NCBI GenBank assembly: GCA_965262635.1
Contig: OZ253547.1
Location: forward strand, 3,445,514 to 3,509,513
DNA length: 64,000 nt
From: Candidatus Versatilivorator sp.
Lineage (GTDB): Bacteria > Acidobacteriota > Terriglobia > Versatilivoradales > Versatilivoraceae
Direction: 5' to 3'
Position numbers and translations under genes: made by a program. Below the pieces are notes generated by a model. The model was not told the DNA's origin, made no database searches, and worked only from the letters and a program-made list of their open reading frames with translations. Positions 3,584 through 42,992 of the stretch are shown piece after piece (positions within the stretch are counted from its first letter, which is position 1; each line of letters begins with the position of its first letter).

Positions 3584-3743
3584 GAGCCTGCAGCACATCA
3601 CCTTTGCCGCCTCAATCTCATGCCCGATTCCGAATTTTGAAAAACGCTCCGTTACCAATTTAATCCATGTACCAATGCGGAGGGAAGAGATGAATCTCTT
3701 TACTTCAAGAGGATTTTTCCCGTTGCTTTGCCTCTGTATCGGT

Positions 3744-4040
3744 TCACACTGACGGTTGCGGCTGGTATCGCTCGACGTTGATCCGGTCTTCATCCTTGCG
3801 CGCCCGGACGAGATCCCAAGTGGTCTGTCGGCACAGCCAAAACTCGGCATTGGACCAACCCGCCTTCTCAAGCCGAATGGCCATCTCCGGGGAGATGGCC
3901 GCGTGGCCGTTCAGAACCCGCGAGAGGGTGTGACGGGCGACACCCAGCACCTTCGCCGCTTCGGTCACGTTTAAACCGAGCGGGTCCAGGCAGTTCTCGC
4001 GGATACTGCGTCCGGGATGCGGGGGATTGCTCATCGTCAT
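3744..4040 (-). CDS. higA: HigA-family antitoxin (XRE HTH)
   Basis: 98 aa; [65 protein letters not shown] matches the HigA/VapI HTH core. It lies 14 nt downstream of the higB remnant. Confidence 0.8.
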
Positions 4041-4057: not shown

Positions 4058-4332
4058 GTGGTAGTCGATCAGGTCGACGTCGTAGGCATCGCCATCTTCG
4101 AAGCGGAAGATCACCCGCCAGTTGCCGGAAATTGAAATGCTCCAGTACCCCTTCAGTCCGCCCTTCAGCGGGTGAAGCCGGTAGCCGGGCAGGTCGAGGT
4201 CCGAGGGCTTGCGGGCATCGTCAAGGTCCGCCAAGGCGAGCGCGACACGATCCGCCAAGGCGGGACCCACTCGCTCGGATCGCCGCGCTCGTACATGCGC
4301 TTCAGGCCTCGATGACGAAACCTTCAGACCAT
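4058..4332 (-). pseudogene. higB: higB toxin (RelE/ParE superfamily) pseudogene: TGA at codon 3 plus frameshift
   Basis: The C-terminal 60 aa ([48 protein letters not shown]) are canonical HigB. The N-terminus MV*RFRHRGLKRMYERGDPSE reads in a different frame and carries an in-frame TGA. The frames switch around 4270-4280. Confidence 0.6.
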
Positions 4333-4845
4333 GAGGCAATGTACCGCATACCGGTACACATGTCAATTGGGGGATCTCGTCGGACCGCAGCACGAGTCTT
4401 TGCCGTCTTTGTCTCAGCCTCCATACCGCCCGCCGACATCTTTCCCCACGCGCCGGTAAGCAACCGCTGGGCGCCACCGAGGGAGTGGTTCCAGCGGAGA
4501 CCCGGCGCATGGACCTGTACACCTTCGAGCCGACGTTCGTCATCCAGATCAAGGGACAGGGGTTGCTGGCGGACCTCACCGGCGAGATCACCGTGTTCGT
4601 CTTCGAGGACAACGAGGAGGAGCTCGAGGGTGATTCACTGGATGCACCGCTGTGTTTCAGCGGCCCGACTGCCGGTGGTCTGCAACCCGGCTCAGTTCAA
4701 TCCAGGTAATGTCCCGCTCCGAGCAGGACGGGGACCCCGAAGGCCAGGACCCTTTTGACGAACGTCACCTTGCGTTCCCACCGGGAGTTGGCGAAATTCT
4801 GGGTCGAGTAGTATTTAGGGACTCTTTAGTGAGGACGGTCGCGCC

Positions 4846-12700: not shown

Positions 12701-12734
12701 CCAGTGCCCCCTGCTGCTTCATGGCTCGCGACCC

Positions 12735-13145
12735 TGCCCTGCCGTGCGGATGATTCGAGGGAAAAAACCCAATCGTCAATAAAGACGAACCACGAATGAA
12801 CACGAATAAACACAAATAGACAAGAAAACACATGGACCTCCTTCAACGACAAACGGCACCAAAATGCTTCTGCAACTTTGTTACCTTGGTTTGACTTCGT
12901 GTCCTTCTTAGATAACCCCTCGATATCGGTTGTCGCACCCCCCAATCAACAATTCATCAATCAGTTTATTGGTGTTCATTCGTGTCCATTCGTGGTTCGC
13001 CGTTTTCCTTTGTGGATAACTCTTATCGGTCCTTGTTGCGTGTGTGGAAAACTCTTCCCCCTCCACAACCTTTGGCGGATCCCTCTTGAGCCTTCTCCAA
13101 CCCCTTAGTGGCCCTTCGTCGTTCTTCGTGCCCCTTCGTGGATAT
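12735..13145. repeat. Modular noncoding repeat cluster, family A locus 1 (R1 module 12735-12880 in reverse orientation; inverted partial R1 12960-13010; R2/R3 modules 13060-13145)
   Basis: Near-identical to modules at 35722-36620 and 33430-33709. R3 is a 10-13-bp CACGAAGGG(G/C) iteration and R2 is CTAAGGGGTTGGAGAAGGCTCAAGAGGGATCCGCCAAAGG. Confidence 0.7.
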
Positions 13146-13186
13146 CTTTTTTCCTTCATTGCTTGTTGGATTAATGCACGGCCGAC

Positions 13187-19823: not shown

Positions 19824-20255
19824 GACTCACGGGGGGCGGTGTTTGCCCCCCACCGGCTCGACTGCGGGCTCCGCCCTGGTCTCGCCGACTCCCCCTTGAG
19901 GGGCGAGTGATCTTGAGGCCTGCACAAGGCGCTCGAGTATCACTCCCCCCTTGAGGGGGAGTCGCAGAAGCCGAGCCATCAGGCGAAGGCTGATGCGGTG
20001 GGGGGGCCAACCAATACCCGCCGCCTTGCCCGGGCCAGCTGACAGTCACTCACGGGACGCCGCGTTTGCCCCCCCCCACCGGCTCGACTGCGGGCTTCGC
20101 CCTGGTCTCACCGACTCCCCCTCCAGGGGGGAGTGATCTTGAGGCTTGCATTAGGCGCTCGGGTACTCCCCCCCTGAGGGGAAATCGCAGAAGCCGAGCC
20201 GCCAGGCGAAGGCTGATGCGGTGGGGGGTGGACGCCGGGCCGCCAGGGTGTTGAA
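19824..20255. repeat. Two tandem copies (~218 bp each) of a GC-rich repeat, family B. Each copy has an internal ~30-bp imperfect palindrome (CGACTCCCCCTTGAGGGG...CCCCTTGAGGGGGAGTCG)
   Basis: Copy 1 is 19824-20041 and copy 2 is 20042-20255. A third partial inverted copy lies at 36140-36215. Confidence 0.75.
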
Positions 20256-20299: not shown

Positions 20300-20389
20300 T
20301 GGCGGAGAGAGCGGGATTCGAACCCGCGTTAGAGTTTCCCCTAAACACGCTTTCCAAGCGTGCGCCATCAGCCACTCGGCCATCTCTCC
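20300..20389 (-). tRNA. tRNA-Ser (anticodon GGA), type II with long variable arm, CCA encoded
   Basis: Reverse complement reads GGAGAGA-TG-GCCGAGTGGCTGATGGC-G-CACGC-TTGGAAA-GCGTG-(variable arm TTTAGGGGAAACTCTAAC)-GCGGG-TTCGAAT-CCCGC-TCTCTCC-G-CCA. Confidence 0.9.
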
Positions 20390-28904: not shown

Positions 28905-30482
28905 TTATGGCGACCCGTTGCCGGCACCGGCCTGCTTTTTCCTCCGGTACTGGCGCCAGGTGACGGCGATTCTCTCCGGCTCGTCGATGCCGGGTGAGGG
29001 AACTTTGTGGACCACCGAGTTGTGGGGAGCGTTCTTGACGAATTCCGGATCCCGGTAAGCCTCCCGGGAAATTTGACGGAGGACGGCGATGTACTCGTCC
29101 AGATCGTCCTTGGAATAGGACTCGCAGGGTTCCAGGGTAAAAGGCTCCGGTACAATCCAGGGAGGATGACTCATCCAGTAGTGCTGCAGTCCGAAGTCGG
29201 CCATTCTCCGCATCACGTCTTCGGTCCCGACTCCGGTGTCCTGCTTCAGCTTGTCCCAGGAGTAGCGAACCTGCTCAAGGCGGCGTTTTCCTTCGGCATA
29301 CTGAATGACGACCCCCGGGATCTCGCTCAGCTTCTTGAGCAGATAGTTGTTGTTGAGCACCGAGCACTCGGCGACTTCCCGCAGCCCGTCAGCGCCGTGC
29401 TGCAAGATCCAGGCATAGGCCCGCAGAATCGTGGGCGCATTTCCGAGGAAGCACCGTACTCTGCCAATGCTATCCGGCCGGTCATATTCCAGACGGTACT
29501 TCTTCCCGTCAAATGCCACCCGCGGGATCGGCAGAAACCGGCCCAGTTCCCGGACCACTCCGACGGCCCCGGTGGAATGCCCCATACAGGCATGGGGGGA
29601 GGAGAAGGTCTTGTGAATATTGAAGTGGCACAAGTCGAACCCGGCTTCCCTGGCTCGCGTGATGCCCAGGATCCCGTTGGCGTTGGCCTGATCGTAGGCA
29701 CAGAGCGCCCCCACCCGGTGGGCGGCCTTGACGTACTCATCGATCCTGGGATTGTAGATTCCGGTATCCTCCGGGTTGGTGACAAAAATTCCGGCGGTGC
29801 GCTCGGACAGGGCCGCTTTCATGGCTTCCAGGTCGGGATATCCACTCTCGCCGGGCATGAGCGTGATCACTTTGAATCCGGCGGTGGCCGGACTGGCGGC
29901 ATCACAGGGGTGCGAGAACAGGGTGGTAATGATTTCCGATCTTTTCTCATCCTTCCTGGCCTCGTGATAGGCCCGAACGATGCAAGCATTGGCGTAGACT
30001 CCCTGGGCGCCGCCCCCGGGTTGGAAACTGAAATGGTCCAGCCCCGAGATCTCCTTGAGGAACTCCTCCAACCGGAAATAGATCTCCAGAATGCCCTGAA
30101 TGGTGTCCTCGTCCTGGAGGGGATGAACATCCCGGAGGCCAGGGTTTCCGACCAGTTGTTCGTGAACCTTGGGGCTGTATTTCATGGTACAGGTCCCCTC
30201 ACTGGCATCGACGGTCATGTCCGCGCCCATGGTCTCCTGAGACAATCTCAGAAAGTGGCGGAGGACCCGAACCTGATTCACTTCGGGCAGTGCAGCCGGC
30301 TTCCGTCTTCTGAGGTTTTCCGGAATCCTGGAAACCCCGTCCCCAACCTCAGCCTCTATTTCCGTTTCAATCCTGGGGAGGAGAATTCCTCTTTCGCCGG
30401 GGACACTCATCTCGCAGATGATCTGCTCGTCCCACCTTGCCTGATGAAACTTCCGCAACAGCGTGGTCTTGTTCCTGCCCAT
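28905..30482 (-). CDS. gcvPB: glycine dehydrogenase (decarboxylating) subunit 2
   Basis: 525 aa; PLP-dependent GcvPB blocks, high similarity throughout. Confidence 0.9.
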   Translation of the reverse strand: MGRNKTTLLRKFHQARWDEQIICEMSVPGERGILLPRIETEIEAEVGDGVSRIPENLRRRKPAALPEVNQVRVLRHFLRLSQETMGADMTVDASEGTCTMKYSPKVHEQLVGNPGLRDVHPLQDEDTIQGILEIYFRLEEFLKEISGLDHFSFQPGGGAQGVYANACIVRAYHEARKDEKRSEIITTLFSHPCDAASPATAGFKVITLMPGESGYPDLEAMKAALSERTAGIFVTNPEDTGIYNPRIDEYVKAAHRVGALCAYDQANANGILGITRAREAGFDLCHFNIHKTFSSPHACMGHSTGAVGVVRELGRFLPIPRVAFDGKKYRLEYDRPDSIGRVRCFLGNAPTILRAYAWILQHGADGLREVAECSVLNNNYLLKKLSEIPGVVIQYAEGKRRLEQVRYSWDKLKQDTGVGTEDVMRRMADFGLQHYWMSHPPWIVPEPFTLEPCESYSKDDLDEYIAVLRQISREAYRDPEFVKNAPHNSVVHKVPSPGIDEPERIAVTWRQYRRKKQAGAGNGSP

Positions 30483-30516
30483 CGAATCGTCTCCTGGGGC
30501 AACCGGTCGATGACGC

Positions 30517-31926
30517 TCAACCTTGCCCTGTAACAGTCTCCAAGGCGATGACCAGCCTGTCGATGTCTTCCTTCGTCATGATTTCGGTCACGCAGTAGAG
30601 GGCGCTCCGCCCCAGTTCCGGGAACTCCCGAGAGAGGTCCTTGCCACCGATGATCCGGTGCTCCAGCAGGGACTTGTTGACCTGCTCCACGCTCTGGCCG
30701 GTGTCTCGAAAACTCACCACGAACTCCTTGAAGAAGGGTGTGGGAAAGAGAACGTCGACACCCTCGATCCCGGCAATTCGCTTGGCAGCATACTGGGCCT
30801 TCTGCATGATGACCTGACCCAGCTCCTGCATCCCTTTCGGCCCTAACAGGGCCAGATAGACCCCTGCCGTGATGGCCCACAACCCGGTGGTGGTTCCCGT
30901 GTATTCCTTGCCCTTTTCCCGGGAACCGTAGGAGGTCCGTTCGAAAAGCACCTCTCCAAAGCCATATTCCCCTTCGCGAACCGTTTCGGTGAGACCAAAC
31001 ATCAAATCCTTGAATTCGGCGATATATCTCATGTCGTCATGGGTGGCGATAAAGCCTCCCTGTCCACCACCACAGAGCAGATGCATGCCCAGAGGATGAA
31101 AATCCCCGCAGGCGAAGGTGGCCCCGTAGCTTGCCGGGGGGGCCATCACACCCAGAGCGATGGGGTCGGTGTAGACCACCAGTTCGGCGCCCTGGGCTCG
31201 AACCATCCGGCTGACCTCCTCGGCTTGGGTTTCAATCACACCCAGGTAGGCGGGGTTTTCGATCACCACCGCCGCCGTCCGCTCGGTAAGCTTGGAACTC
31301 AGGTCGCGGATATCCACCAAGCCGGTTGCCGGATCCATCTCGATGAGCCCGATTTCGAGTGTGGGGTCCCTGCTCCCCTTGAGATAGTTCCTGATCACGG
31401 ACAGGGTCTCCCAACCCATGGACCTGGGCAGGAGCACCTGAGGGCGTCCGGTGATCCGGGAGGCCATGCGCAGTGAAGTGGCGGCCGCCTGAGGACCGTC
31501 ATACAGGGGGCAGCTCAGGACATCCATCTCCAGCAGATCCCCCATCAGACTGGCGTACTCGAAAAATGCCTGCCACTTGCCATGATCGGCATAGGACTCC
31601 CCCACGTAAGCCGTGAGGAACTCAGCACGGTTATTGATCTCGTCGCAGACCGCCGGCACGTAGTGCTGAGCACAGCCGGCCCCCAGAAAATTGAGGTGCT
31701 CCGAACAATTCCTGTTCTTCTGCAGCAGCCGCTCCACGTGCCTCTTGATCGACGCCTCGTCCAGAATGGGCTCCGGCAGATTCAGCCTTCTCCCAAGCCG
31801 CAAATGGCTCGGAATCTCGGCATACAGATCCTCGATGCCGGCGGCGCCTATCTCCTCGAGCATCTGCGCCTTGATTTCCGGGACCGAGTTTGGAATATAG
31901 GGATAAACGATTGGGTCGTTGCTCAT
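30517..31926 (-). CDS. gcvPA: glycine dehydrogenase (decarboxylating) subunit 1
   Basis: About 470 aa from MSNDPIVYPYIPNS; canonical GcvPA N-terminus. Confidence 0.9.
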   Translation of the reverse strand: MSNDPIVYPYIPNSVPEIKAQMLEEIGAAGIEDLYAEIPSHLRLGRRLNLPEPILDEASIKRHVERLLQKNRNCSEHLNFLGAGCAQHYVPAVCDEINNRAEFLTAYVGESYADHGKWQAFFEYASLMGDLLEMDVLSCPLYDGPQAAATSLRMASRITGRPQVLLPRSMGWETLSVIRNYLKGSRDPTLEIGLIEMDPATGLVDIRDLSSKLTERTAAVVIENPAYLGVIETQAEEVSRMVRAQGAELVVYTDPIALGVMAPPASYGATFACGDFHPLGMHLLCGGGQGGFIATHDDMRYIAEFKDLMFGLTETVREGEYGFGEVLFERTSYGSREKGKEYTGTTTGLWAITAGVYLALLGPKGMQELGQVIMQKAQYAAKRIAGIEGVDVLFPTPFFKEFVVSFRDTGQSVEQVNKSLLEHRIIGGKDLSREFPELGRSALYCVTEIMTKEDIDRLVIALETVTGQG

Positions 31927-31979
31927 CACCACTCCTGTAGCCCTGCCTGACGGCAAAATGCGGGACAGCGCCGGCAGTT

Positions 31980-33413
31980 CTACCTACTCACTTCACACCA
32001 ATCCATGACCAGCAAGGCATAGGCCTTGGTCGCCACCATCAGCTCGTCGATTTCGACGTACTCGTCGGCAGCGTGTGCGACCAGGATGCTTCCAGGCCCG
32101 TAGACAATGCTCGGAATCCCCTGCGGGTTGAGAAAGGCCGCATCGCAAACCGCGTAAAATCCAGCGAACCTGGCTGGAACGTCGAAGCGCGTTCCCTGCG
32201 CGGCTTCCCCGTGGGCGGCTGCCATGGCTTGACAGATCGCGTGGCCGGGGTCCACCGAAAAGGCCGGCCAGTTGACCTTCCATTCCACCTTGGGCGGATG
32301 GTCCCGGAGCCACTCGTCCAACTCGCAGGCATGGTGGAGATAGTTCTCGAACTCCTGCCGGACCTCCTGGGGGGTATCCTGGGGGTGATACCACAGGCAA
32401 TACTCGATCGTGCAGTAGTCCGAGATGAAAAAGGGCACCTGCACGCCGTGAGGGCCTCCCGAAATGACCCCCGGCAACATGGTGAAATGACCGGGCTTGA
32501 AGAGGGGATGCTTCTTGGTCAACCCCCACTCGTCTTCCAGCTTGCGGATGGCGTTGACCAGGTAGACGCCCTTGTCGATGGCATTGACGGCAACCTCGGC
32601 TCCGAGGCCGCCGGCCCGAAAGGTCTCTCCCCGGGTAGAGGCGTGGCCGGTCTTCCCTTCTACGGTCACACTGACCCACCACAAGCCCGGAGAAACCGGC
32701 ACCACCGCCAGGGGGTGAGGCGGCGCCGAAGGCTCTGAGACCACCGCGGCGTCAGCCCGGTAACCCCTCTTGGGCAGATCGCCGGCGCCGATGGTGGCGC
32801 TGTCCATATTCTCTTCTCCCGCGGTGGCGCTGAGAGTCAGGTCCCCCTTGAGCCTGAGACCCACCGCCTGAATGGCTTTGACCGCCATCATCTGAGAAAC
32901 CAGCGGTCCCTTCATGTCGCAGGAGCCCCGCCCGTAGATTCGGCCTCCCTCGACTTTGCCGCTCAGTGGATGGCCCGACTTCCATTTTTCGGGTAAACCG
33001 GTGGGAACCGTATCGATGTGGCCATTGAAAAGTAGCGACCTGCCTCCGCCGGCACCCTGCCAGACGCCGGCCAGATTGGCCCGTTTGGGCTCCACTTCCC
33101 ATAGATCGACGTTGAGCCCAAGTTGTTGGTAGTGTCCGGCCAGGTACCGATTGGCTTCCGTTTCCCCGCCGACTTCCGCCTGGTAGTCCGTCCCCGGGTA
33201 ACCCGGATTGATGCTGCGAATCTGCACCAGTTCACTGACGGCGTTCACAATTTCATCCTGCATGCCGTCAATGGCGTCCACAACGCTGCGCTTCTCAGCC
33301 TTGGTTGCCACTCCGCCCTCCTGTTTCAGAAAATCCCAATGGTTGGAGTAGTCTAACACCGTTTGTAGTGCTAAGTGGATAGCGCATAGAAGAACACTGA
33401 GGTTGTCCACCAA
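31980..33413 (-). CDS. M20-family metallopeptidase (ArgE/DapE/ACY1-like)
   Basis: LLFNGHIDTVP metal-binding motif and GRGSCDMKG catalytic block. Confidence 0.8.
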   Translation of the reverse strand: MVDNLSVLLCAIHLALQTVLDYSNHWDFLKQEGGVATKAEKRSVVDAIDGMQDEIVNAVSELVQIRSINPGYPGTDYQAEVGGETEANRYLAGHYQQLGLNVDLWEVEPKRANLAGVWQGAGGGRSLLFNGHIDTVPTGLPEKWKSGHPLSGKVEGGRIYGRGSCDMKGPLVSQMMAVKAIQAVGLRLKGDLTLSATAGEENMDSATIGAGDLPKRGYRADAAVVSEPSAPPHPLAVVPVSPGLWWVSVTVEGKTGHASTRGETFRAGGLGAEVAVNAIDKGVYLVNAIRKLEDEWGLTKKHPLFKPGHFTMLPGVISGGPHGVQVPFFISDYCTIEYCLWYHPQDTPQEVRQEFENYLHHACELDEWLRDHPPKVEWKVNWPAFSVDPGHAICQAMAAAHGEAAQGTRFDVPARFAGFYAVCDAAFLNPQGIPSIVYGPGSILVAHAADEYVEIDELMVATKAYALLVMDWCEVSR

Positions 33414-33429
33414 GTCCGCGAGGTCACAC

Positions 33430-33709
33430 CGAGGTCACGAAATTATGTTCCCGGCGTTCGGTCTCGGCGTCGGGTATGAGTAGATTCTTGATTTACATGG
33501 ATGGACAGGATAGACAGGATGTTTTGTCGCCAACCGGCTTCTCCCGAAAGAGTCCTTGCTCCGGAAAAGCCACAACGATCCTCTCGAATGATGCGCTCCG
33601 TCGTGTGGGGCGGGGGCCGGACTTGCCTGAAACACTTGAGCGTTATCCGCAAAGGACAAAAAAAATATCCACGAAGGGGCACGAAGGACCACGAAGGGCC
33701 ACTAAGGGG
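33430..33709. repeat. Family A repeat locus 2 (partial R1 33560-33630; R3 iterations 33664-33709), left half of a repeat array split by the IS1634 insertion
   Basis: CCACGAAGGGGCACGAAGGACCACGAAGGGCCACTAAGGGG matches reverse complement of 13100-13145. Confidence 0.65.
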
Positions 33710-35721
33710 AACTTCATTAAACAAAAAGCGAGCTAACACCAGGTAAGTGCCTGTATTCATGGGACATATACGTATGTCGAGGTGATAAAGGGCTGTATTA
33801 TTGTTGCCATGTATTAAAAGATATGGCATAGTTCATTGAACTTATATACAATATCTTGTGTTGCATATGATGTTGCCATGTACCGGGTGCCGCCATGTCC
33901 ATCCGCGTCCACGTTATCCCCAACCGCTCCAGCCCTCCTGCCGTCCTCCTCAGAAAAACTTGGCGCGAGGGGAAACGAATCCGGCGACAGACCCTCGCCA
34001 ACCTTTCGAAAGTCCCCAAACCGGTCGTCGACGCCATCCGCGCTTTCCTCCAAGGCGGCGTCGTCTTTGAAACCCTCGACGATGCCGCCGCCATCCGAAG
34101 GTCGCTGCCACACGGGCATGTGGCGGCCCTGCTCGGCCTGGCGACCCAACTCGGTCTTCCCCGCATCCTCAACCGAAAGCCCTGCCGCCAACGTGACCTC
34201 GCACTGGCCGCCGTCATCGCACGCCTCATCCACCCGGCCTCGAAGCTCGCCACCGCCAGGGCCTTGTCCCCCGAGACCGCCGACAGCAGCCTCGGGGTCC
34301 TGCTCGGCCTCGGGGGCGTCTCTGGAAACGAGCTGCTCGACATGCTCGACTGGCTCAGCAACCGCCAACCCTGGATCGAACAAAGTCTTTCCCGCAGGCA
34401 TCTTCACAACACCACCCTGATCCTCTACGACGTGACCTCGACCTACCTCGAGGGGCAGCAATGCCCGTTGGCCGCCTTCGGTCACAACCGCGACGGAAAG
34501 AAGGGGAAAAAGCAGATGGTCTTCGGCCTGCTCTGCGCCGCTGACGGCTGTCCGGTCGCGGTCGAAGTCTTCCCCGGCAACACCGCCGACCCGACCACGC
34601 TGGCCGCCCAGGTCCGCAAGATCCGGGACCGCTTCGGGGTCCGCCGGGTGGCCCTGGTGGGCGACCGCGGCATGATCACCTCCGCACGCATCCGCACCGA
34701 TCTGTTACCGGTCGGCCTGGACTGGATCTCGGCCCTGCGCACGGTCGACCTCCGCAAACTGCTGAAGGCCCCCAGGGGTAATCCTGCCGGGGCGCCCCTG
34801 CGTCCCGAGGCACTGGTCCCCGACACGGTGGCCGAAATCCTCAGCCCCGAGTTCCCCGGCGAACGCCTCCTGGTCTGCTTCAACCCGCGGCTGCGCCAGC
34901 AACGCGCCCGCAAGCGCGAGGATCTGCTGCGGGCCACCGAAGCCACCCTCGCAAAGATCGCCGCGGCCGCCCGCAAGCACAGGCCCGGGCCAGAGAACCG
35001 AGACCGGACCCTGCAGTCCCTCGGCAGACAGGCCCACCGGCATAAGGTGGAGAAACACTTCGACCTCACCGTCACCGATGACGATCTGCAGTGGTCCCGC
35101 AACCGGGAGAAGATCAAGGCCGAGGCACGCCTGGACGGTATCTACGTCATCCGGACCAATCTCGACACCGCAGCCATCGACACCCACGCGGCAGTGGCGG
35201 CCTACAAGAGCCTCTCGCAGGTCGAACGGGCCTTTCGTTCGATGAAGATGACCCGGCTCCACGTGCGCCCGGTCTTCGTCTACACCGAACAGCACGTGCT
35301 CGGGCATGTGTTCCTCTGCCTGCTGGCCTGGTACCTGGAATGGCACCTGCGCCGGCGTCTGGCACCCTTGCTGTTCGAGGATGAGGCCCCTCCGGTGCGG
35401 GACTCACCCGTGCAAAAGGCCGAACCGTCGCAGCAAGCCAAGGCGAAGGCCGCCACCAAGAGAACCCCCGACGGCGATCCGGTGCACAGTGTCACGACGC
35501 TGCTCAATGATCTGGCCACCGTGACCCTCAATGAGGTCACGCTCCCCGGACATCCCGACAGTGCCTTCCCCCTGGTGACGAAATCGACGCCACTGCAGGC
35601 CAAGGTGTTCGCTTTACTGAAAATCGATCCCGAGGCAGCTGTTGCCATAAACAGGGCAGGTTGATTTTGAATAAACTCCCTTTTTACAACTAAATACGCC
35701 TATTTTGCTCGTGAAGTTCCG
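33710..35721 (+). mobile_element. IS1634-family insertion sequence (~2.0 kb) with 9-bp target-site duplication ACTAAGGGG (33701-33709 / 35722-35730)
   Basis: Joining the flanks reproduces exactly the uninterrupted paralogous repeat CCACTAAGGGGTTGGAGAAGG found in reverse orientation at 13091-13111. Termini GGAACTTCA.../...TGAAGTTCC(G) are inverted. Confidence 0.8.
33895..35664 (+). CDS. IS1634-family (IS4-like) DDE transposase
   Basis: 589 aa; YDVTSTYLEG...GHNRDGKKGKKQMVFGLL block and DDE region typical of IS1634 transposases. Confidence 0.85.
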   Translation: MSIRVHVIPNRSSPPAVLLRKTWREGKRIRRQTLANLSKVPKPVVDAIRAFLQGGVVFETLDDAAAIRRSLPHGHVAALLGLATQLGLPRILNRKPCRQRDLALAAVIARLIHPASKLATARALSPETADSSLGVLLGLGGVSGNELLDMLDWLSNRQPWIEQSLSRRHLHNTTLILYDVTSTYLEGQQCPLAAFGHNRDGKKGKKQMVFGLLCAADGCPVAVEVFPGNTADPTTLAAQVRKIRDRFGVRRVALVGDRGMITSARIRTDLLPVGLDWISALRTVDLRKLLKAPRGNPAGAPLRPEALVPDTVAEILSPEFPGERLLVCFNPRLRQQRARKREDLLRATEATLAKIAAAARKHRPGPENRDRTLQSLGRQAHRHKVEKHFDLTVTDDDLQWSRNREKIKAEARLDGIYVIRTNLDTAAIDTHAAVAAYKSLSQVERAFRSMKMTRLHVRPVFVYTEQHVLGHVFLCLLAWYLEWHLRRRLAPLLFEDEAPPVRDSPVQKAEPSQQAKAKAATKRTPDGDPVHSVTTLLNDLATVTLNEVTLPGHPDSAFPLVTKSTPLQAKVFALLKIDPEAAVAINRAG

Positions 35722-36620
35722 ACTAAGGGGTTGGAGAAGGCTCAAGAGGGATCCGCCAAAGGTCGGGAAGGGGGAATAGATTTCCACGAAGGGCGCTAAA
35801 GTATCTGTTAAGGGGGCAAGAGATTAATCCGCGAAGGGACTCTAAGGGGTTGGAAAAGACTCGAAAGGGGTCCGTGAAGGGCTACGAAGAAAGACACTAA
35901 GGGGGAAAAGTTATCCACGAAGGGCACGAAGTCACACCCAGGGCGCAAAATTGCAGTAGCATTTTGGCACCGCTTGTCGTTGAAGTAGGTCTATCTGTCT
36001 TCGTGGCTATTCATGTCCATTCGTGGTTCGTCTTCATGAACGATCGGCCGTTTTTCCTCGAATGATCCTCACGGCATGGCGGGGGCCGGCTCGCCGGCAA
36101 ACGGGAGTTTCCCAAAGGGTGCACGTCGGCTTTCTGAGAACTCGCCCGGCGCCCACCCCCCACCGCATCAGCCTTCGCCTGACGGCTCGGCTTCTGCGAC
36201 TCCCCCTCAAGGGGGGAGTGATTGCCCTGGGAGCGCGGGCGTCCCGCCCGCATCCTGTCCCTTTCCCCGCCGCTGAGCTTCAGTGCGATGCTGCAGGCAG
36301 CCACCCTGTCGGCGGGAACAGCAGCGGCTAGGCCGAAGGAGAGCCATGGCGCCGTTCCCGGTTGATCCAAGTGGGGGAGATGGCCCAGGCTGTGCCAGGC
36401 TTGGTGCGGGCGGGACGCCCGCGCTCCCAGGAAGCCTTCATCCCATGACCTCGTCACTCCAAGGGCACCAAATGGCAGACGCATTTTGGTGCCACTTGTC
36501 GTTGAAGGAGGTCCATCTCTCTTCTGGTCTATTTGTGTTTATTCGTGTCCATTCGTGGTTCGTCTTCATAAACAATCGGCCGTTTTTCCTCGAATGATCC
36601 GCACGGCAGGGCGGGGGCGC
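35722..36620. repeat. Family A repeat locus 3: R2/R3 modules 35722-35930; two R1 copies 35925-36075 and 36465-36615; includes a family-B fragment 36140-36215
   Basis: Direct comparison with 12735-13145 and 19824-20255. Confidence 0.7.
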
Positions 36621-36818
36621 CACTAATCACTAGCCACTGCCTGTCAGGGAAGGCTGCTCAACAGCGAGTTGGGATATCATAGGCCGGTATCCGGGAACGG
36701 GACGCACGGCGACAGTCCCTGCACTGCCCGGCCAAGGGTGTACAGCGGGCAGGCGCCCGGCAGGGAGAGCAGCAAAGCTGTCGGAGGGGCCTGCATACGA
36801 AATCCTGAGGGATTTGAG

Positions 36819-37964
36819 ATGAGACCTCCAGAAGGATTGTTGACCGGCCTCCCTCCCGGCTCCAAGATTCTGTTCGTCCGGCTTCGGTCTCTGGGCGATA
36901 CGATTCTGTCAACCCCTCTCTATGCCGCGCTCAAGGACTGGAGGCCGGACCTGCAGCTCTCGGCGCTGGTGGAAGAACCCTATGATGAAGTGCTGCGCCG
37001 TAATCCCAACCTGCAATCGGTGTTCCCTCTGCCGGTCCAGGGGGCCAAACGACGGTCCACCAGCATCGCTCGTTGGCAGACACTCCGGCAAATCCGGCGA
37101 GAGCGCTTCGACTGCTGCATCAACCTGCACGGAGGCACCACCAGCGCCTGGCTCACCGCGATGAGCGGGGCTCGCTATCGTATCGGCCTGCGTGGCTATC
37201 GCAATTCCTTTTGCTACAACGTTCGGACAAAGCGGCCGTCACCGCCCCCCGAGATCCGTTGGCACTCGGCCAGATTCCAATTGGAGTGGCTCTATCATCT
37301 GGGCCTGGAAAAAAGGCCCGCTCCTCCGGCGCGCCTCTTCCCCGACCCTGCGCTCCGGTCCGCCCTGGAGGTTCGCCTGCGGGATGCCGGACTCCCCCCC
37401 TCCCGGCCCCTTTGCGTGATTCAGCCCAGCTCTCGCTTTTATACCAAGGAGTGGACCGATTCCGGATTTGCCGAGATCTCGGATACCCTGCAAAACGAGC
37501 ACGGCTATGCCACCTTGCTGGTCGGTACCGAGGAGGAGGAGCCCAAGATCAGGAGGGTGGCCGGCCTCTGCCGAACCCGGCCTGCTGCGATTTGGGGCCT
37601 TTCGATCTCCGAGCTGACCTGGGTGTTGGATCAGGCCAGTCTGTTCCTGGGAAATGACAGTGGCCCCACCCACCTGGCTGCGGCACTGGGAATTCCCGTG
37701 CTGGTGCTCTTTGGATCCTCCGATTCAAGCCTGTGGCGCCCTTGGCAAACCACCTATGAGATCGTGCAGAATCCCTTTGACTGTAATCCCTGCCCCGGCT
37801 ACCGCTGCCTTGTGTATGACCAACCCCGCTGTATCCTCAGCATTACCCCGCACCAGGTGAAGCAAGCCTTGCAGCGTTTGCTGAAACGGACCCAACGGCC
37901 CGGTGGAAATCGAGAGACTGGCGCACCGGGGTTGGAGTCTCCGGAGGAGTGCAGCCCCCGGTGA
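36819..37964 (+). CDS. glycosyltransferase family 9 (LPS heptosyltransferase-like)
   Basis: About 381 aa from MRPPEGLL; KILFVRLRSLGDTILSTPL N-terminal GT9 signature; C-terminal GNDSGPTHLAAALG. Confidence 0.8.
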   Translation: MRPPEGLLTGLPPGSKILFVRLRSLGDTILSTPLYAALKDWRPDLQLSALVEEPYDEVLRRNPNLQSVFPLPVQGAKRRSTSIARWQTLRQIRRERFDCCINLHGGTTSAWLTAMSGARYRIGLRGYRNSFCYNVRTKRPSPPPEIRWHSARFQLEWLYHLGLEKRPAPPARLFPDPALRSALEVRLRDAGLPPSRPLCVIQPSSRFYTKEWTDSGFAEISDTLQNEHGYATLLVGTEEEEPKIRRVAGLCRTRPAAIWGLSISELTWVLDQASLFLGNDSGPTHLAAALGIPVLVLFGSSDSSLWRPWQTTYEIVQNPFDCNPCPGYRCLVYDQPRCILSITPHQVKQALQRLLKRTQRPGGNRETGAPGLESPEECSPR

Positions 37965-38035
37965 CAAATGCGGGCTTCGGCAGGAAGGGATTGGAGAATC
38001 CACGGGGACCTGGAACGGACGGCGCCTCCAGCAGT

Positions 38036-39148
38036 CTACCGGGGCCGCAGGAACCGGGTTCTCACCGTTACCTGCTCGATGCGTTTCAGGTGGGGCCGGA
38101 AGCCGATACCCGCATCCGGCAGCACATGAATCCTTCCCTGCGGGTCCACTTCCACTTCCGGCTCAATCAAGTCCTTACGAAAATAGCGCTTGCTGGCGGA
38201 AACATCGCCCGGCAGCCTGAAATTCTCCAGGGTGGAGAGGGCGACGTTGTGGGCTCGGCCGATGCCCGATTCCAGCATTCCCCCGCACCAGACGGGGACC
38301 TTCCGATCCCGGCAGACGTCGTGAACCCGGAGGGCTTCGCTGTAGCCGCCGACTCTCCCCAATTTGATGTTGATGATCCGGCAGGCCCCCGCTTCGATGG
38401 CCTTGCGGGCGTCCTCACCATCCAGGATGGATTCATCCAGACAGATGGGTGTGCGCAGGGCCTTCTGGAGTTGGACGTGGTCCAGGATGTCGTTCCAGGC
38501 CAGCGGCTGCTCAATCATCAATAGATCGAAATCATCCAGCGCCTTCAGGTGCTCCAGGTCAGCCAGGCTGTAGGCGGAGTTGGCATCGCACATCAACAGT
38601 ATCTCGGGAAAGCGCCTTCGGACTTCCCTCACTACAGCGACATCCCACCCCGGCTTGATTTTGATCTTGATTCGCCGGTAGCCTGCCAGCAACTCCCTTT
38701 CGATCTTGTCCAGCAAAATGCCGGGGTTCTCTTGAATGCCGATAGAGACCCCGCAATCCAGGGTCTTGCGCCGGCCCCCCAGCAGCTCGTGGAGGGGCTT
38801 CCCCTTCAGGCGCGCATAGAGATCCCAGATGGCTGTCTCCACGGCGGCCTTGGCCATATTGTGACCGCGGATGGGTTTGAGCAAGGGAGCGACATCTCGC
38901 GGATGGGTGATCTCAGAGGCAAAGACCCTGGGGACGACGAAATCCTGGAGCACATGCCAGGCGGTAGCAGTGGATTCGTGATTGTAGAACGGACCCTCGG
39001 GAGCGGTGGATTCGCCATAGCCAACCAATCCCTCGCCAAAGACTCGAACCAGAATCACCCGCCGCAGGGTCGTCCGTCCGAAGCTGGTCTCGAAAAAAGA
39101 GATCAGCGGCATCTGTACTTCACGGAGCTCAATCTGCTCGATCTTCAC
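38036..39148 (-). CDS. enolase-superfamily enzyme, o-succinylbenzoate synthase / N-acylamino-acid racemase / L-Ala-D/L-Glu epimerase-like
   Basis: 370 aa; KIKIKPGWD, MCDANSAY, IEQPL and CLDES metal-ligand blocks of the MR/MLE subgroup. Confidence 0.8.
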   Translation of the reverse strand: MKIEQIELREVQMPLISFFETSFGRTTLRRVILVRVFGEGLVGYGESTAPEGPFYNHESTATAWHVLQDFVVPRVFASEITHPRDVAPLLKPIRGHNMAKAAVETAIWDLYARLKGKPLHELLGGRRKTLDCGVSIGIQENPGILLDKIERELLAGYRRIKIKIKPGWDVAVVREVRRRFPEILLMCDANSAYSLADLEHLKALDDFDLLMIEQPLAWNDILDHVQLQKALRTPICLDESILDGEDARKAIEAGACRIINIKLGRVGGYSEALRVHDVCRDRKVPVWCGGMLESGIGRAHNVALSTLENFRLPGDVSASKRYFRKDLIEPEVEVDPQGRIHVLPDAGIGFRPHLKRIEQVTVRTRFLRPR

Positions 39149-40281
39149 AGGTTCAATGCCAGGTGGGTAAGTAAAGCGGCTCGTGGAACCAGACTCTCCA
39201 CCAGCACATGTTCGTGCAAGGCGTGGGGGCCATCGCCTTCAGGGCCCAGGCCATCCAAAGTAGGAATCCCCAGGGCCGCGGTGAAGCAGCCGTCGCTGGC
39301 TCCACCGGTAGAGCCCTCTTGCAGGTCGATGCCCAGCTCGGCAGCCAGCCCGCGCGCCTGCCGGAACAGTTGAATCACCTGCCCATTGCGTTCCAGGGGC
39401 GGCCGCTTGATGCTTCCCTGGACGGTAAGCCGACTGCCCTTGACCTGGGGCTTGAGCCGGTGGATCTGGTGCATAATCCGCTCTCCCTCGGCTTTGGTGA
39501 CCACTCGCACGTCCACTTCCAGCTCGGCCCGGTCGGCAATTACGTTGGAGCGGGAACCACCGCGGATCACCCCTGGATTCACCGTGGTTCCCAAATCCAG
39601 GTTGTTCAACTTGTAGAGCTCCAGGACCTGGCAGGCCAATTCCCGAATGGCGCTCACCCCTTTTTCATAGTCCACGCCGGCATGGGCAGCCACACCGCTG
39701 GCTGAAATCAAAAAGGTCCCCACCCCTTTGCGGGCGGTCTTGAGCGCGCCCCCGGGCAGGCAGGGCTCCAGTACCAGAACGGCCCGGCAATCCCCGGCTT
39801 CCTTTTCGATCAAGGCCCGTGCCGTCGGAGTGCCCACTTCCTCGTCGGAGTCGAGCAGCAGGGTCAGCGGCCGTTTCAAAGCCGCCCGGCCGCTCGACAG
39901 AAAGTGGGCCAGAGCCAGCATCAGGGTGGTGCCGCCGCGCATGTCAAAGGAGGCCGGACCAAAGATCTTCCCCTCTTCCAGCCTGGCCGGGCGCCTCCCG
40001 GCCTCGCCCATACCCCAGACCGTATCCAGATGGCCCAGCAGGAGCAGGGGTTTCCCTTGGGCTTCGGGACCCGAAAACCTGGCCAGCAGGTGGTCTCCCC
40101 CCTCCGGGTTGGAGACCAATTCCACCGCGGCGCCGTAGCTGCTGAACCGGTCGCCCAGGCGGCGGGCCAACCGGTCCAGCGCCGGCTTGTTGTCCGAAGG
40201 CGAATCCGTGTTGATCAAGTCCATCAGCCACTGGACCATCTGGGGTTCCAGATCGCGAAAATAGGAGAGGAGTGTCGACAT
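39145..40281 (-). CDS. M20-family peptidase/amidohydrolase (carboxypeptidase G2-like)
   Basis: About 379 aa from MSTLLSYF; LLLLGHLDTVW motif; start overlaps the upstream enolase-family gene by 4 nt. Confidence 0.8.
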   Translation of the reverse strand: MSTLLSYFRDLEPQMVQWLMDLINTDSPSDNKPALDRLARRLGDRFSSYGAAVELVSNPEGGDHLLARFSGPEAQGKPLLLLGHLDTVWGMGEAGRRPARLEEGKIFGPASFDMRGGTTLMLALAHFLSSGRAALKRPLTLLLDSDEEVGTPTARALIEKEAGDCRAVLVLEPCLPGGALKTARKGVGTFLISASGVAAHAGVDYEKGVSAIRELACQVLELYKLNNLDLGTTVNPGVIRGGSRSNVIADRAELEVDVRVVTKAEGERIMHQIHRLKPQVKGSRLTVQGSIKRPPLERNGQVIQLFRQARGLAAELGIDLQEGSTGGASDGCFTAALGIPTLDGLGPEGDGPHALHEHVLVESLVPRAALLTHLALNL

Positions 40282-40754
40282 GGAAAGAATGCCAGCCCCG
40301 GCGGGTCCCGACCGGCTCCCTGGCTCGCCAGATCGCGCCGGCCCCGTTTGGTGTCCGGGAGACCTCAAAAGAGGTGGGGCAAACGATTGAAAATTAAACC
40401 AACTTTCATCGTGTATCCGCCGCCCCTTGAGAGCATGCCGGCTGGGACCCGGCGGAGCGAGAACGCCACCCCAAAATACCACAGTTGCCTGGCGGTGGAT
40501 GGCTTTTTTGGCTCCCACCGGCGGTACCGCAACCCAATGCGGCGCAATCCCCGGGAAGATGTCCTACGGCTACTCCACCGGTCGGTTGTATTGGACTTTA
40601 AGATAAATTTACCCGAGCGCCGCTGTGGTTCTTGCTAAGATACAACCGACTCTCAGACTTGGCGCAGATCAAGGTGGGGCCCAAGGAGCCTGGACTTCGA
40701 AACGGCGATTCCGATGGGCCGTTGCCAAGCCGCTCTCAAGAAAGGCAGACCGAC

Positions 40755-42146
40755 ATGCAATCCTCACGAAGATCGTTTCTGAAAGCCTCCGGGGCCTGCA
40801 CCATGGGCTTCCTGGGGCTTCGCTCTCTAACCGACAACGGATTTTCAACGCCCGGTCCCAGACCGAATGCTCCGGCAGGCTATGGGGAGCTACAGCCGGA
40901 CCCGGAGGGGGTGATCGAACTCCCCGCGGGTTTCACCTATCGGATCCTTTCCAGGGTGGGCCAGATGATGGACGACGGGTACAAGGTCCCCGGTCTGCAT
41001 GACGGCATGGCTGCCTTTCCAGGTCCGTCAGGAACCACGATTCTGGTCCGAAACCATGAACTGAGCCTGGATCATCATTCCATCGGGGCCTTCGGGCCCC
41101 TCAACGAACTGATCAGGGAAAAAGACCGGGCAAAACTGTATGACGCCGGTCGCAGGAGGCCCTGCCTGGGGGGAACTTCCACCCTGGTCTACAACACTCG
41201 TGAGATGCGCCTGGAAAAGCACTTCCTGAGCCTGGGAGGGACGGTTCGCAACTGCGCGGGCGGGCCTACTCCCTGGGGAAGCTGGATCACCTGTGAGGAG
41301 ACGGTGCAGAAGGAGGAGGGACTCTACAGCCGGGATCATGGCTACAACTTCGAAGTGCCCGCTAGCAGCGAAGTCCGGCTGACTTCTGCGGTTCCCTTAA
41401 AAGCCATGGGGCGTTTCGTGCATGAAGCTGTCGCCGTCGATCCCAATTCCGGGATCGTCTATGAAACGGAGGACCGAGGTGATGGGCTACTCTACCGCTT
41501 TATCCCCTATAAGCCCGGAAATATGGCGGCAGGCGGGCGCCTGCAGGTTTTGAGGGTAAAGGATCGGCCCGGTCTGGACACGCGAAACTGGAACGCACGC
41601 CAAGTGCTGCCAGGTCACGCTTTCGAGATCGAATGGGTTGAGATGGACGATGTCGAGTCCCCCAATGATGATCTACGCTATCGAGGATTCGAAGATGGGG
41701 GCGCGGCCCGCTTTGCCCGGGGAGAGGGCATGTGGTGGGACAAGGGATGGATCTATTTTGTCTGCACCAACGGGGGCCTGAACAAAAAGGGGCAGGTGTG
41801 GCGCTACGCCCCCAGCTCCGAGGAGGGGAAACCCGGCGAGAACAGCAGGCCGGGCAAACTGGAACTGTTCATTGAGCCCAACGACGGCAACCTGGTCGAG
41901 AACGCCGACAACCTGACGGTGGCGCCTTGGGGGGACCTGGTCCTTTGTGAGGATGGACCGGAGGAGCAATTCGTGGTCGGGGTCACGCCGCGGGGCAATC
42001 TCTACAAGCTCGGCCGGAACGTGTTCAACAACTCCGAGTTTGCCGGTTCGACCTTTTCTCCCGACGGCAGCACCCTTTTCGTCAACATCCAGAATCCAGG
42101 CATCACGCTGGCCATTACCGGTCCCTGGCTGGAGCAAAAGAGCTAG
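40755..42146 (+). CDS. PhoX-family (DUF839) Tat-secreted phosphatase-like protein
   Basis: Tat signal MQSSRRSFLKASGACTMGFLGL; VRNHEL, NCAGGPTPWGSWITCEE and FSPDGSTLFVNIQ blocks. Confidence 0.75.
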   Translation: MQSSRRSFLKASGACTMGFLGLRSLTDNGFSTPGPRPNAPAGYGELQPDPEGVIELPAGFTYRILSRVGQMMDDGYKVPGLHDGMAAFPGPSGTTILVRNHELSLDHHSIGAFGPLNELIREKDRAKLYDAGRRRPCLGGTSTLVYNTREMRLEKHFLSLGGTVRNCAGGPTPWGSWITCEETVQKEEGLYSRDHGYNFEVPASSEVRLTSAVPLKAMGRFVHEAVAVDPNSGIVYETEDRGDGLLYRFIPYKPGNMAAGGRLQVLRVKDRPGLDTRNWNARQVLPGHAFEIEWVEMDDVESPNDDLRYRGFEDGGAARFARGEGMWWDKGWIYFVCTNGGLNKKGQVWRYAPSSEEGKPGENSRPGKLELFIEPNDGNLVENADNLTVAPWGDLVLCEDGPEEQFVVGVTPRGNLYKLGRNVFNNSEFAGSTFSPDGSTLFVNIQNPGITLAITGPWLEQKS

Positions 42147-42992
42147 CCCGCATTTCTCACCAAGTCGCAGCAACCATTGGGAAAGTATCTTTATCTTCAG
42201 GGTCCTGCTCGGCCCCATGCTCAAGACGACTGAGTACATACGGGGATGTGGATCCGGCACACGCGGCCGATGCCGGTGAGGCCGAGCCGGTTCTCTTCGA
42301 CGGCTACGCCCTGCGCGATGAGCCCATGCACGGCCCGGCGTCCCGTCCAGCCGAAGCACTCCAGCGCCTTCTCGCACCCCTTCAGATGGGCGATCATCGC
42401 TGCTGCGTCTCCCTGTGGGCCTGTCCGAGGGCCAGGATCCTGGAGGCGAACCGGATAGCCGGTTCAGGAACCGTCACGGTGTCATACAAACTACTATTGC
42501 GGAGCCCGCTTTTGGCGGTGTCAACAACGGGCGAGGAAGCAATGTCCCAGGGACTCCAGCTAAGTGCAAGAGTGTGACCAAGCTTCGCCGGTTAACGCTC
42601 AAGCCCTCCGGGAAGGCCCACAGCCCTTAATCGCGGCTGGTCGAATTGGGGTCGCTACGGGGCAGTTCACGCACCGCAGCATTTCGCCGAGTATCTTCGT
42701 AGACCTGGAACGGAACGGCGCCAGTGACCAAGCGAGGGTCGAGCACGTGTCCACTGCGACCCGCCTAAAAGGGGTGATCCATTCGTTGGACGCGGAGTAC
42801 GCTAGCCATGAACGCCCGCTCGCTCGCCGACGATCAACGGCTGGCTCGACATGCCCCGTGTCGAGTAGAATGGAGTGCCTCATGGGGTCAAGAAACCTGA
42901 CTGTCTGGCCACAGGACTCTACTTTCGGGCGACCAAGCGCAGAGAGACTCTAACGCGTTGGAGGACCGACTGACCAGGATTCGGATGTCTCC

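Follow-up and report, generated by a model that had tools for sequence, protein, structure and literature searches.

The window (the whole 64,000-nucleotide stretch of DNA analysed, from Candidatus Versatilivorator sp.) contains an insertion sequence (IS) in the spacer between the genes for an M20-family peptidase and a GT9 heptosyltransferase-family protein. The relevant features are listed below.

12732–13152, minus strand: uninterrupted paralogous copy of the repeat, between two convergent genes
31980–33311, minus strand: M20-family peptidase gene (Pfam Peptidase_M20, 111 bits), start about 395 bp from the left end of the IS
33658–33706, plus strand: left part of the interrupted dispersed repeat ("family A"), with four tandem 10-bp CCACGAAGGG units
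33701–33706: left copy of the 6-bp target-site duplication (TSD), ACTAAG, identical to 35722–35727; the empty sites hold one ACTAAG
33707–35721, plus strand: complete IS of the IS1634 family, 2015 bp (copies aligned in register)
33707–33716, plus strand: left terminal inverted repeat, GGGAACTTCA in the window copy and CGGAACTTCA in 17 of 17 sibling copies
33804–33852, plus strand: a pair of overlapping sigma-70-like promoter matches that precede the transposase start (weak evidence)
33895–35664, plus strand: transposase gene, full length, a single open reading frame of 589 aa (NCBIfam and Pfam profiles)
35712–35721, minus strand: right terminal inverted repeat, CGGAACTTCA on the minus strand (pattern search and copy comparison)
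35722–35727: right copy of the 6-bp TSD, ACTAAG (empty-site comparison)
35722–36084, plus strand: right part of the interrupted dispersed repeat
36819–37964, plus strand: GT9 heptosyltransferase-family gene (Pfam Glyco_transf_9, 129 bits), start about 1.1 kb from the right end of the IS

The orthologs of the M20 peptidase are called as 443-aa proteins, and an exact-protein look-up with this start gave no match; the exact 381-aa GT9 product is encoded on 13 contigs. A gathering scan of the whole window with Rfam detects two tRNAs only; none of the curated RNA families thus covers the surrounding repeats. The spacer that received the IS is non-coding and rich in repeats, and there is no evident disruption of a gene.

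A search with the transposase identifies the NCBIfam profile NF033559 (IS1634 family) with 313 bits (cutoff 100), over positions 4–482 of 483, and the Pfam domain DDE_Tnp_1 (PF01609) with 54 bits (cutoff 23); with the NCBIfam IS4 model, the protein reaches only 15 bits (cutoff 115). In an alignment of eight sequences, including relatives down to 30–36% identity, the catalytic residues D179, D257 and E444 are invariant; the spacer from D257 to E444 comprises 186 aa, and the motif is Y437-x2-L440-x3-E444-x6-K451, with L440 in place of the YREK arginine. Annotated "IS1634 family transposases" on plasmids of Bradyrhizobium, Paraburkholderia, Acidiphilium, Rhodococcus and Mycobacterium are 43–53% identical to this protein. 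The IS1634 family, formerly the IS1549 group, was defined by De Palmenaer, Siguier and Mahillon in 2008 ("IS4 family goes genomic", PMC2266710); its members usually lack the YREK arginine and have a long N3–C1 spacer, the end consensus C-----YT, an AT-rich TSD of 5–6 bp and a typical length of 1500–2000 bp (PMC2266710). The family profile, the DDE triad, the incomplete YREK motif with its long spacer, the end consensus and the AT-rich TSD of 5–6 bp are all found in the present element, and the leucine in place of arginine and the 6-bp TSD set it apart from IS4 sensu stricto. The misfits are the first base of the window copy and the size: with 2015 bp and one open reading frame, the element is 15 bp over a range that is described only as "typical". 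Thus, the element belongs to the IS1634 family, as the first-pass annotation had proposed and as the NCBIfam, Pfam, motif and plasmid-relative evidence bears out, and, compared with the annotated plasmid elements (53% identity at best), is probably a new, still nameless member of it. The left end is AT-rich (40% GC), and the promoter consensus scan that produced the two matches listed above would be expected to yield 0.8.

The IS is located inside the fourth 10-bp unit of the repeat, CCACTAAGGG. When the two repeat parts (33658–33706 and 35722–36084) are joined and compared with the paralog read from 13152 to 12732, about 438 nt align with 70.5% identity (E=2e-52), in agreement with the earlier claim that the element was inserted into a dispersed repeat. 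That claim also held that removal of the IS reconstructs exactly the reverse complement of 13091–13140; the match stands, and a stretch of 52 nt that includes the junction is exact, but the claimed exactness over the whole segment does not hold, 48 of 50 positions being identical. Orthologous empty sites are present in four strains (L031, L033, L034 and L036; 98.5–99.4% identical), where they read GGGCCACTAAGGGGTTGGAG; in L036, every base agrees over a junction-spanning stretch of at least 120 nt. The four IS-free orthologous contigs are collinear with the window over 29798–33709 and 35722–42200, in line with the proposal that the two flanks once belonged to an unbroken repeat array that preceded the GT9 gene. 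These are empty sites for the insertion. Precise excision of the IS from the other strains was considered and rejected: the old paralog, with an overall identity of 70%, likewise lacks an interruption at this point.

The extent of the IS is defined by its other copies. Six copies of the same IS are each exactly 2015 bp long, align with zero indels and 98.2–99.7% identity, and share the sequence from 33707 to 35721. All 17 sibling copies (these six and eleven relatives) start with CGGAACTTCA and finish with TGAAGTTCCG. The motif CGGAACTT occurs at both ends of all 17 siblings; in the window copy, the right end has it too, and the left end reads GGGAACTT. For CGGAACTT to agree with the published consensus C-----YT, the element has to start at 33707. 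A weaker similarity between the left and right ends extends some 12–15 bases past the left terminal repeat. The G at 33707 is private to the window copy, which carries about four further private substitutions, and leaves only 9 perfectly complementary bases, so that an inverted-repeat search with a minimum length of 10 did not list the terminal repeat of this copy. The boundaries of the IS are therefore 33707 and 35721. The C-to-G change at the first base may have arisen by mutation, in which case cleavage at the left end could be impaired, or it may be an error of the consensus. Near-identical copies were found only in metagenome-assembled genomes (MAGs) and metagenome contigs; one MAG (CBDAOQ010000003) holds three, 1.7% different from the window copy. 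A scan of JGI metagenomes with the 26-nt left end as the query yielded no match; the 19-nt right end yielded 8, none of which encodes the transposase or has a matching left end, so that these are chance matches.

The TSDs are equally regular. The same-IS copies are flanked by ACTAAT, CTTAAG, ATTAAT and TTTAAG, each in the pattern TSD, C..G, TSD; the duplicated flank is exactly 6 bp in L003, L004 and L005 and at most 7 bp in L001. A relative from Ca. Multivorans (63% identical) contributes seven further clean 6-bp TSDs, the plasmid copies from Bradyrhizobium and Acidiphilium three, and a 36%-identical relative six. Altogether, 21 of 21 clean duplications (12 from this IS and the 63%-identical relative, 3 from Bradyrhizobium/Acidiphilium and 6 from the 36%-identical relative) are 6 bp long, and the terminal C is present in all 21. 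The palindromic target N-Y-T-A-R-N is fitted by the 12 TSDs and by the three from cultured Proteobacteria (15 of 15 clean cases); the 36%-identical clade has the same 6-bp stagger and takes only generic AT-rich sites. Five copies (L035, L006, L007, L012 and L013) have flanks that mismatch each other, yet every single flank is N-Y-T-A-R-N; copy L002, which counts against this pattern, has no TSD and its flanks are off the motif. The TSD is thus 6 bp long and the target motif is N-Y-T-A-R-N. Target-type sites are rare in the GC-rich DNA of the window and about fourfold commoner in the repeat-rich spacer (YTAR occurs 1.9 times per kb in the whole window versus 7.4 per kb in the IS-bearing spacer); among the four 10-bp units, only the fourth contains an N-Y-T-A-R-N site.

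The first-pass annotation had drawn the left boundary differently. The left flank that it quoted, ...CCACGAAGGGCCACTAAGGGG, does end at 33709, the right flank, ACTAAGGGGTTGGAGAAGG..., does resume at 35722, and ACTAAGGGG is present on both sides of the element, as it claimed; accordingly, it described an IS at 33710–35721, "fixed to the nucleotide" and starting with AACTTCA, with ACTAAGGGG as a 9-bp duplication. This sequence occurs once in the empty site and is the maximal direct repeat if the window alone is considered. However, where the target happens to carry the same bases as the end of the IS, comparison of a filled with an empty site cannot tell the two apart, so that sibling copies are needed to place the boundary, and the apparent 9 bp arise because the 6-bp TSD is followed by the first IS bases, GGG (normally CGG), which equal the next three bases of the target, GGG. 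In all 17 other copies, CGG precedes AACTTCA, whatever the flanks, so that the comparison of termini that the annotation itself had suggested assigns 33707–33709 to the IS; its right edge, 35721, holds, and its left edge is three bases off. The duplicated flanks that stop at 6 bp, or at 7 at most, in the four same-IS copies and the uniform 6 bp of the clean duplications in this and related elements also contradict a 9-bp TSD, and both a start with A and a length of 9 bp conflict with the C-----YT ends and the 5–6-bp TSD of the family (PMC2266710). The probability that the 9-bp delimitation is right is close to negligible. A 7-bp duplication, ACTAAGG, combined with the loss of the terminal C (IS at 33708–35721, 2014 bp) is unlikely as well. 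It would yield the observed sequence exactly, with no need for a substitution, and L001 is compatible with 7 bp too, but it presupposes both an abnormal stagger and trimming of the end, each of them unusual, and is therefore less parsimonious; each of the 21 other clean insertions combines 6 bp with a terminal C, and one changed base at 33707, by substitution or by an error of the consensus, is the simpler account. The window copy also carries about four other substitutions of its own.

An assembly artefact, with the IS misjoined at this locus or collapsed into a multi-copy consensus, has to be weighed because the contigs were assembled from long metagenomic reads of strain mixtures. In L035 (4x coverage), the right flank is 100% identical to the window over 7243 bp, the IS differs at 16 sites and the left flank is unrelated; this mosaic indicates that chimeric or recombinant joins through this IS occur in these data. 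Moreover, 33707 is the sole position where the empty (GGG) and the canonical filled (CGG) alleles differ, and polishing with mixed reads could have produced the G there. Against this stand the same 6-bp duplication at both junctions, at a site that fits the target motif of the element, and the collinearity of both flanks with the four IS-free orthologous contigs; a perfect TSD is not expected from a random misjoin. An artefact is thus very unlikely, and the intact TSD together with the empty-site alleles suggests that the assembly is correct at both junctions.

Taken together, these observations make it highly probable that 33707–35721 is a 2015-bp autonomous IS of the IS1634 family, with the TSD ACTAAG in a target of the form N-Y-T-A-R-N. 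The target of its transposition was the spacer that separates the M20 peptidase gene from the GT9 glycosyltransferase gene in a Ca. Versatilivorator-like acidobacterium: a single DDE transposase is predicted to bind the terminal inverted repeats, canonically CGGAACTTCA...TGAAGTTCCG, and to join the 3' ends of the element to target phosphates staggered by 6 bp, and gap repair would then produce the 6-bp duplication ACTAAG. Should the change from C to G at the terminal base be real, it might have immobilised the window copy at its left end. The element is an ordinary one, of recent insertion; the insertion is polymorphic among strains that are about 99% identical, and the IS is active in Ca. Versatilivorator-type Acidobacteriota.

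The main use of these results is in annotation, namely exact coordinates, termini, TSD length and a target motif for a nameless IS1634-family element. The methodological lesson is that a single filled/empty comparison overestimates the TSD whenever the end of the element happens to match the target, and that fixing a boundary requires independent copies. Whether one clade of the IS1634 family, comprising the window IS, the Ca. Multivorans relative and the Bradyrhizobium and Acidiphilium elements (transposase identity at least 48%), chooses the strict palindromic hexamer N-Y-T-A-R-N with 6-bp staggered joining is an evenly balanced question. If this rule is true and unrecorded, it would be a sequence-specific target for a family described only as preferring "AT-rich tracts", and it would explain build-up in the AT-richer intergenic repeats of GC-rich genomes.

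Compared with known systems, the element resembles the IS1634 family in its one large DDE transposase, the long spacer between the second D and E, the YREK motif without arginine, the size of about 2 kb, ends that start with C and fit C-----YT, and the AT-rich TSD of 5–6 bp. In contrast to the family description, which says only "AT-rich" (PMC2266710), its clade uses a strictly palindromic N-Y-T-A-R-N target. IS1634 and IS1549 themselves produce long variable duplications of 8–514 bp (PMC2266710), which are not seen in the clade of the window IS. IS4 members have the full YREK motif and 8–13-bp duplications (PMC2266710); IS4 proper (the IS10, IS50 and IS231 groups) shares the DDE_Tnp_1 domain and the E-x6-K signature with the window IS and, presumably, the cut-and-paste chemistry. 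The elements of Bradyrhizobium sp. 186 (NZ_CP082165) and Acidiphilium multivorum (NC_015179 and NZ_CP041720) are 48–53% identical at the amino acid level over 97–98% of the protein and have 6-bp TSDs with a YTAR core (CTTAGA, TCTAGC and TCTAGA). Their termini, CCGAACTTCC and CTGAAGTTTT versus CGGAACTTCA, likewise have C as their first base and include AACTTC or GAAGTT. With identities far below the same-IS threshold of roughly 95%, they are different IS species, and their hosts are Alphaproteobacteria rather than Acidobacteriota.

The window holds one copy of this IS, so sibling copies were sought in other sequences. An exact look-up of the transposase protein identifies two metagenome contigs, L001 and L002, and a scan of species-representative genomes finds three copies of the IS in a MAG of Candidatus Versatilivorator (Acidobacteriota, Terriglobia). 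The same scan also detects relatives: some, at 82% identity, in another Versatilivorator and in a Terriglobia MAG, and one, at 63% identity, with nine copies in MAGs of Ca. Multivorans. Each of the six copies of the IS itself measures exactly 2015 bp, contains no indels and is in register from window position 33707 to 35721, so that the boundaries proposed in the first-pass annotation (33710-35721) are off by three bases. The sequences quoted there are present as given: the left flank, up to 33709, closes with ...CCACGAAGGGCCACTAAGGGG, the AT-rich segment that follows starts with AACTTCATTAAAC, and the right side reads ...GCTCGTGAAGTTCCG and then ACTAAGGGGTTGGAGAAGG from 35722. The corrected features are as follows.

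33707-35721, the IS element
33701-33706 and 35722-35727, target-site duplication (TSD) ACTAAG on both sides of the IS
33895-35664, + strand, transposase ORF of 589 aa, the one long ORF between the flanks

The flanks of four sibling copies fix the length of the TSD at 6 bp and the first base of the element as C.

Flanks of sibling copies
L003: ACTAAT, then CGGAACTTCA...TGAAGTTCCG, then ACTAAT-T
L004: CTTAAG, then C...G, then CTTAAG-G
L005: ATTAAT, then C...G, then ATTAAT-A
L001: TTTAAG, then C...G, then TTTAAG-C

In these copies, the element starts with C and ends with G. The C-start register produces a perfect 10-bp terminal inverted repeat, and only in this register does CGGAACTT agree with the published C-----YT consensus. 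The Ca. Multivorans relative has clean 6-bp TSDs in seven copies; elements on Bradyrhizobium and Acidiphilium plasmids have CTTAGA, TCTAGC and TCTAGA, and a deltaproteobacterial element at 36% identity has, in six copies, TTATAA, TTTTAG, TTACAG, ATATAA, CTTCAA and TTGAAA. Overall, clean duplications measure 6 bp in 21 of 21 cases, and the 9-bp TSD originally assigned to the window copy does not stand. The arrangement in the window is ACTAAG, then GGGAACTTCA...TGAAGTTCCG, then ACTAAG-GGG; the first three bases of the IS (G followed by GG) are the same GGG that follows the TSD in the target, and the apparent 9-bp duplication is therefore an illusion.

The G at 33707, the first base of the IS, is found in the window copy alone. 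As this copy carries about four other private substitutions, the G may reflect a genuine base change. Alternatively, it may be a consensus error due to co-assembled empty-site reads: 33707 is the sole position near the junction that distinguishes the empty allele from the canonical filled one, so that such reads could have introduced it. An identical string would result if a 7-bp duplication had been made and the terminal C lost, but this requires two anomalies and is very improbable.

When the flanks are joined and one copy of the duplication is removed, the product aligns to the 13,1xx region in reverse complement. The reported exact reconstruction of 13091-13140 holds only in part, with 48 of 50 positions matched, but a 52-nt exact run crosses the junction, and the homology of the repeat extends over 438 nt (33658...36084 versus 13152-12732; 70.5% identity, E=2e-52). 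The 52-nt run and this homology show that both the dispersed repeat interrupted by the IS and the paralogue of that repeat are real. The exact protein of the flanking heptosyltransferase-family gene (GT9) is present on 13 contigs, four of which (L031, L033, L034 and L036, from near-identical strains) are 98.5-99.4% identical to the window; in these four, the M20 peptidase gene, the spacer and GT9 are present but the IS is absent, and the contigs run collinear with the window segments 29798-33709 and 35722-42200. Their empty site reads ...GGGCCACTAAGGGGTTGGAG...; L036 is identical to the window across the junction over at least 120 nt, and the L031 spacer, at 1486 bp, is shorter than that of the window by exactly 2015+6 bp. 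These IS-free sites and the L031 spacer length mark the insertion as a recent, derived one that is polymorphic between strains. The same contigs bear out the proposal that both flanks once formed a single array beside GT9, and the empty-site logic of the first-pass annotation was right apart from the nucleotide-level boundaries. Pfam matches confirm the identity of the flanking genes (M20 peptidase and Glyco_transf_9); their starts lie 395 bp (peptidase) and 1.1 kb (GT9) from the IS, and the insertion disrupts no coding sequence.

The same hexamer on both sides and the collinear flanks argue for a simple, correctly assembled insertion in the window. Contig L035 (ENA ERZ25068833, 4x coverage; 1-3903) shares the right junction, and the 7243 bp of its right flank are 100% identical to the window. 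Its IS differs from that of the window at 16 sites scattered over the length of the element; the left flank of L035 consists of bactofilin genes, ends in TCTAAG and is unrelated to that of the window. L035 is either an IS-mediated recombinant between two IS copies or a chimeric assembly join through the repeat or the IS. In contig L002 (ENA ERZ25071132, 9x coverage; 1-3087), a family-A repeat adjoins the IS copy on the left, 95.6% identical to window 13152-13085, with the junction after ...GGCTCAAGG; this copy has no TSD, and its flanks fall outside the N-Y-T-A-R-N motif. In L001 (4480-10416), the neighbours of the IS copy are a transposase fragment of the IS1595 type and two phage-type integrase genes; the copy thus lies in an island rich in mobile elements.

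The M20-GT9 spacer (1.49 kb; window 33500-33706 and 35722-36650) is itself a mosaic of dispersed repeats, for which no Rfam family match was found. One strand is purine-rich, with AAGGG motifs about every 10 nt.

Repeats of the spacer
Spacer, with paralogue at 13152-12732 (minus strand): repeat unit of ~430 nt
35931-36086, 36453-36618 and 12895-12728 (minus strand): 166-nt sub-unit, 82-84% identical
36144-36222; 19939-20005 and 20165-20240 (minus strand); L002 2088-2122: ~70-nt repeat, 93-98% identical
36226-36252 and 36405-36431: perfect 27-nt inverted repeat, arms ~150 nt apart, between two 166-nt sub-units

The ~70-nt repeat occurs in the spacer, and twice beside the tRNA gene 20303-20389, and forms the right flank of the L002 IS copy; the 27-nt inverted repeat may represent a small foldback or MITE-like insert. 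The L033 spacer has 389 extra bp in two blocks (3698-3836 and 4276-4510), that of L036 contains a perfect 47-bp tandem duplication (3733-3824), and in L032, around 4825, all that lies left of window 36644 gives way to SbcC/SbcD genes. Variable between strains, the spacer is a rearrangement hot spot.

Target choice was analyzed with the 15 clean TSDs of the clade at 48% identity or higher: ACTAAG, TTTAAG, ACTAAT, CTTAAG, ATTAAT, GCTAGC (x2), ACTAGC, TCTAGC (x2), CTTAGG, GCTAGA, CCTAAC, CTTAGA and TCTAGA. All 15 fit N-Y-T-A-R-N, a motif with a palindromic core expected by chance at about 1/64 per site, far below this frequency. The TSDs of the 36%-identical clade (six copies) lack this YTAR core. 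That element, from a deltaproteobacterial MAG (L018-L021, L025 and L026), has ends CGGATGTTCACCCCT...AGGGGTGAACATCCG and at least seven copies, ~99.9% identical, all of them flanked by an AT-rich TSD of 6 bp. The density of YTAR is 1.9 per kb in the window versus 9.5 per kb expected from base composition (about five-fold under-represented) and 7.4 per kb in the M20-GT9 spacer, a scarcity that confines sites for this IS clade mostly to intergenic DNA. The 10-bp unit CCACGAAGGG is repeated four times in tandem, and the IS occupies the fourth unit, the only one of the four in which a G-to-T difference creates ACTAAG, which gives a simple reason for the element landing in the repeat.

The present analysis shows the ends of the element, its TSD and target motif, and an intact transposase with its catalytic residues; the steps joining them are inferred from general knowledge of DDE transposases and from PMC2266710. 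The transposase would bind the terminal repeats, expose 3'-OH ends and attack the target on both strands, at positions 6 bp apart with the YTAR core between them; repair of the gaps would then duplicate the hexamer.

The IS1634-family assignment made at first pass is borne out. The ORF matches NCBIfam NF033559, "IS1634 family transposase", with 313 bits (cutoff 100), compared with ~15 bits each for the IS4 and IS1182 models; a Pfam search identifies DDE_Tnp_1, and plasmid genes annotated as IS1634 family transposases from Bradyrhizobium, Paraburkholderia, Acidiphilium, Rhodococcus and Mycobacterium are 43-53% identical. Two promoter-like matches, a weak indication, lie upstream of the ORF in the 40%-GC left end of the IS. 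Aligned with seven relatives, the most distant at ~30% identity, the ORF product shares D179, D257 and E444 with all of them; its C-terminal signature, Y437-x2-L-x3-E444-x6-K451, lacks the arginine of YREK, and 186 residues separate D257 from E444. These are the traits that separate IS1634 from IS4, a split made by De Palmenaer et al. on such features of the transposase (PMC2266710); the same work gives the family an end consensus of C-----YT, an AT-rich duplication of 5-6 bp and a typical size of 1500-2000 bp. The element is thus an ordinary IS of a known family, IS1634, of which it is a new, unnamed member.
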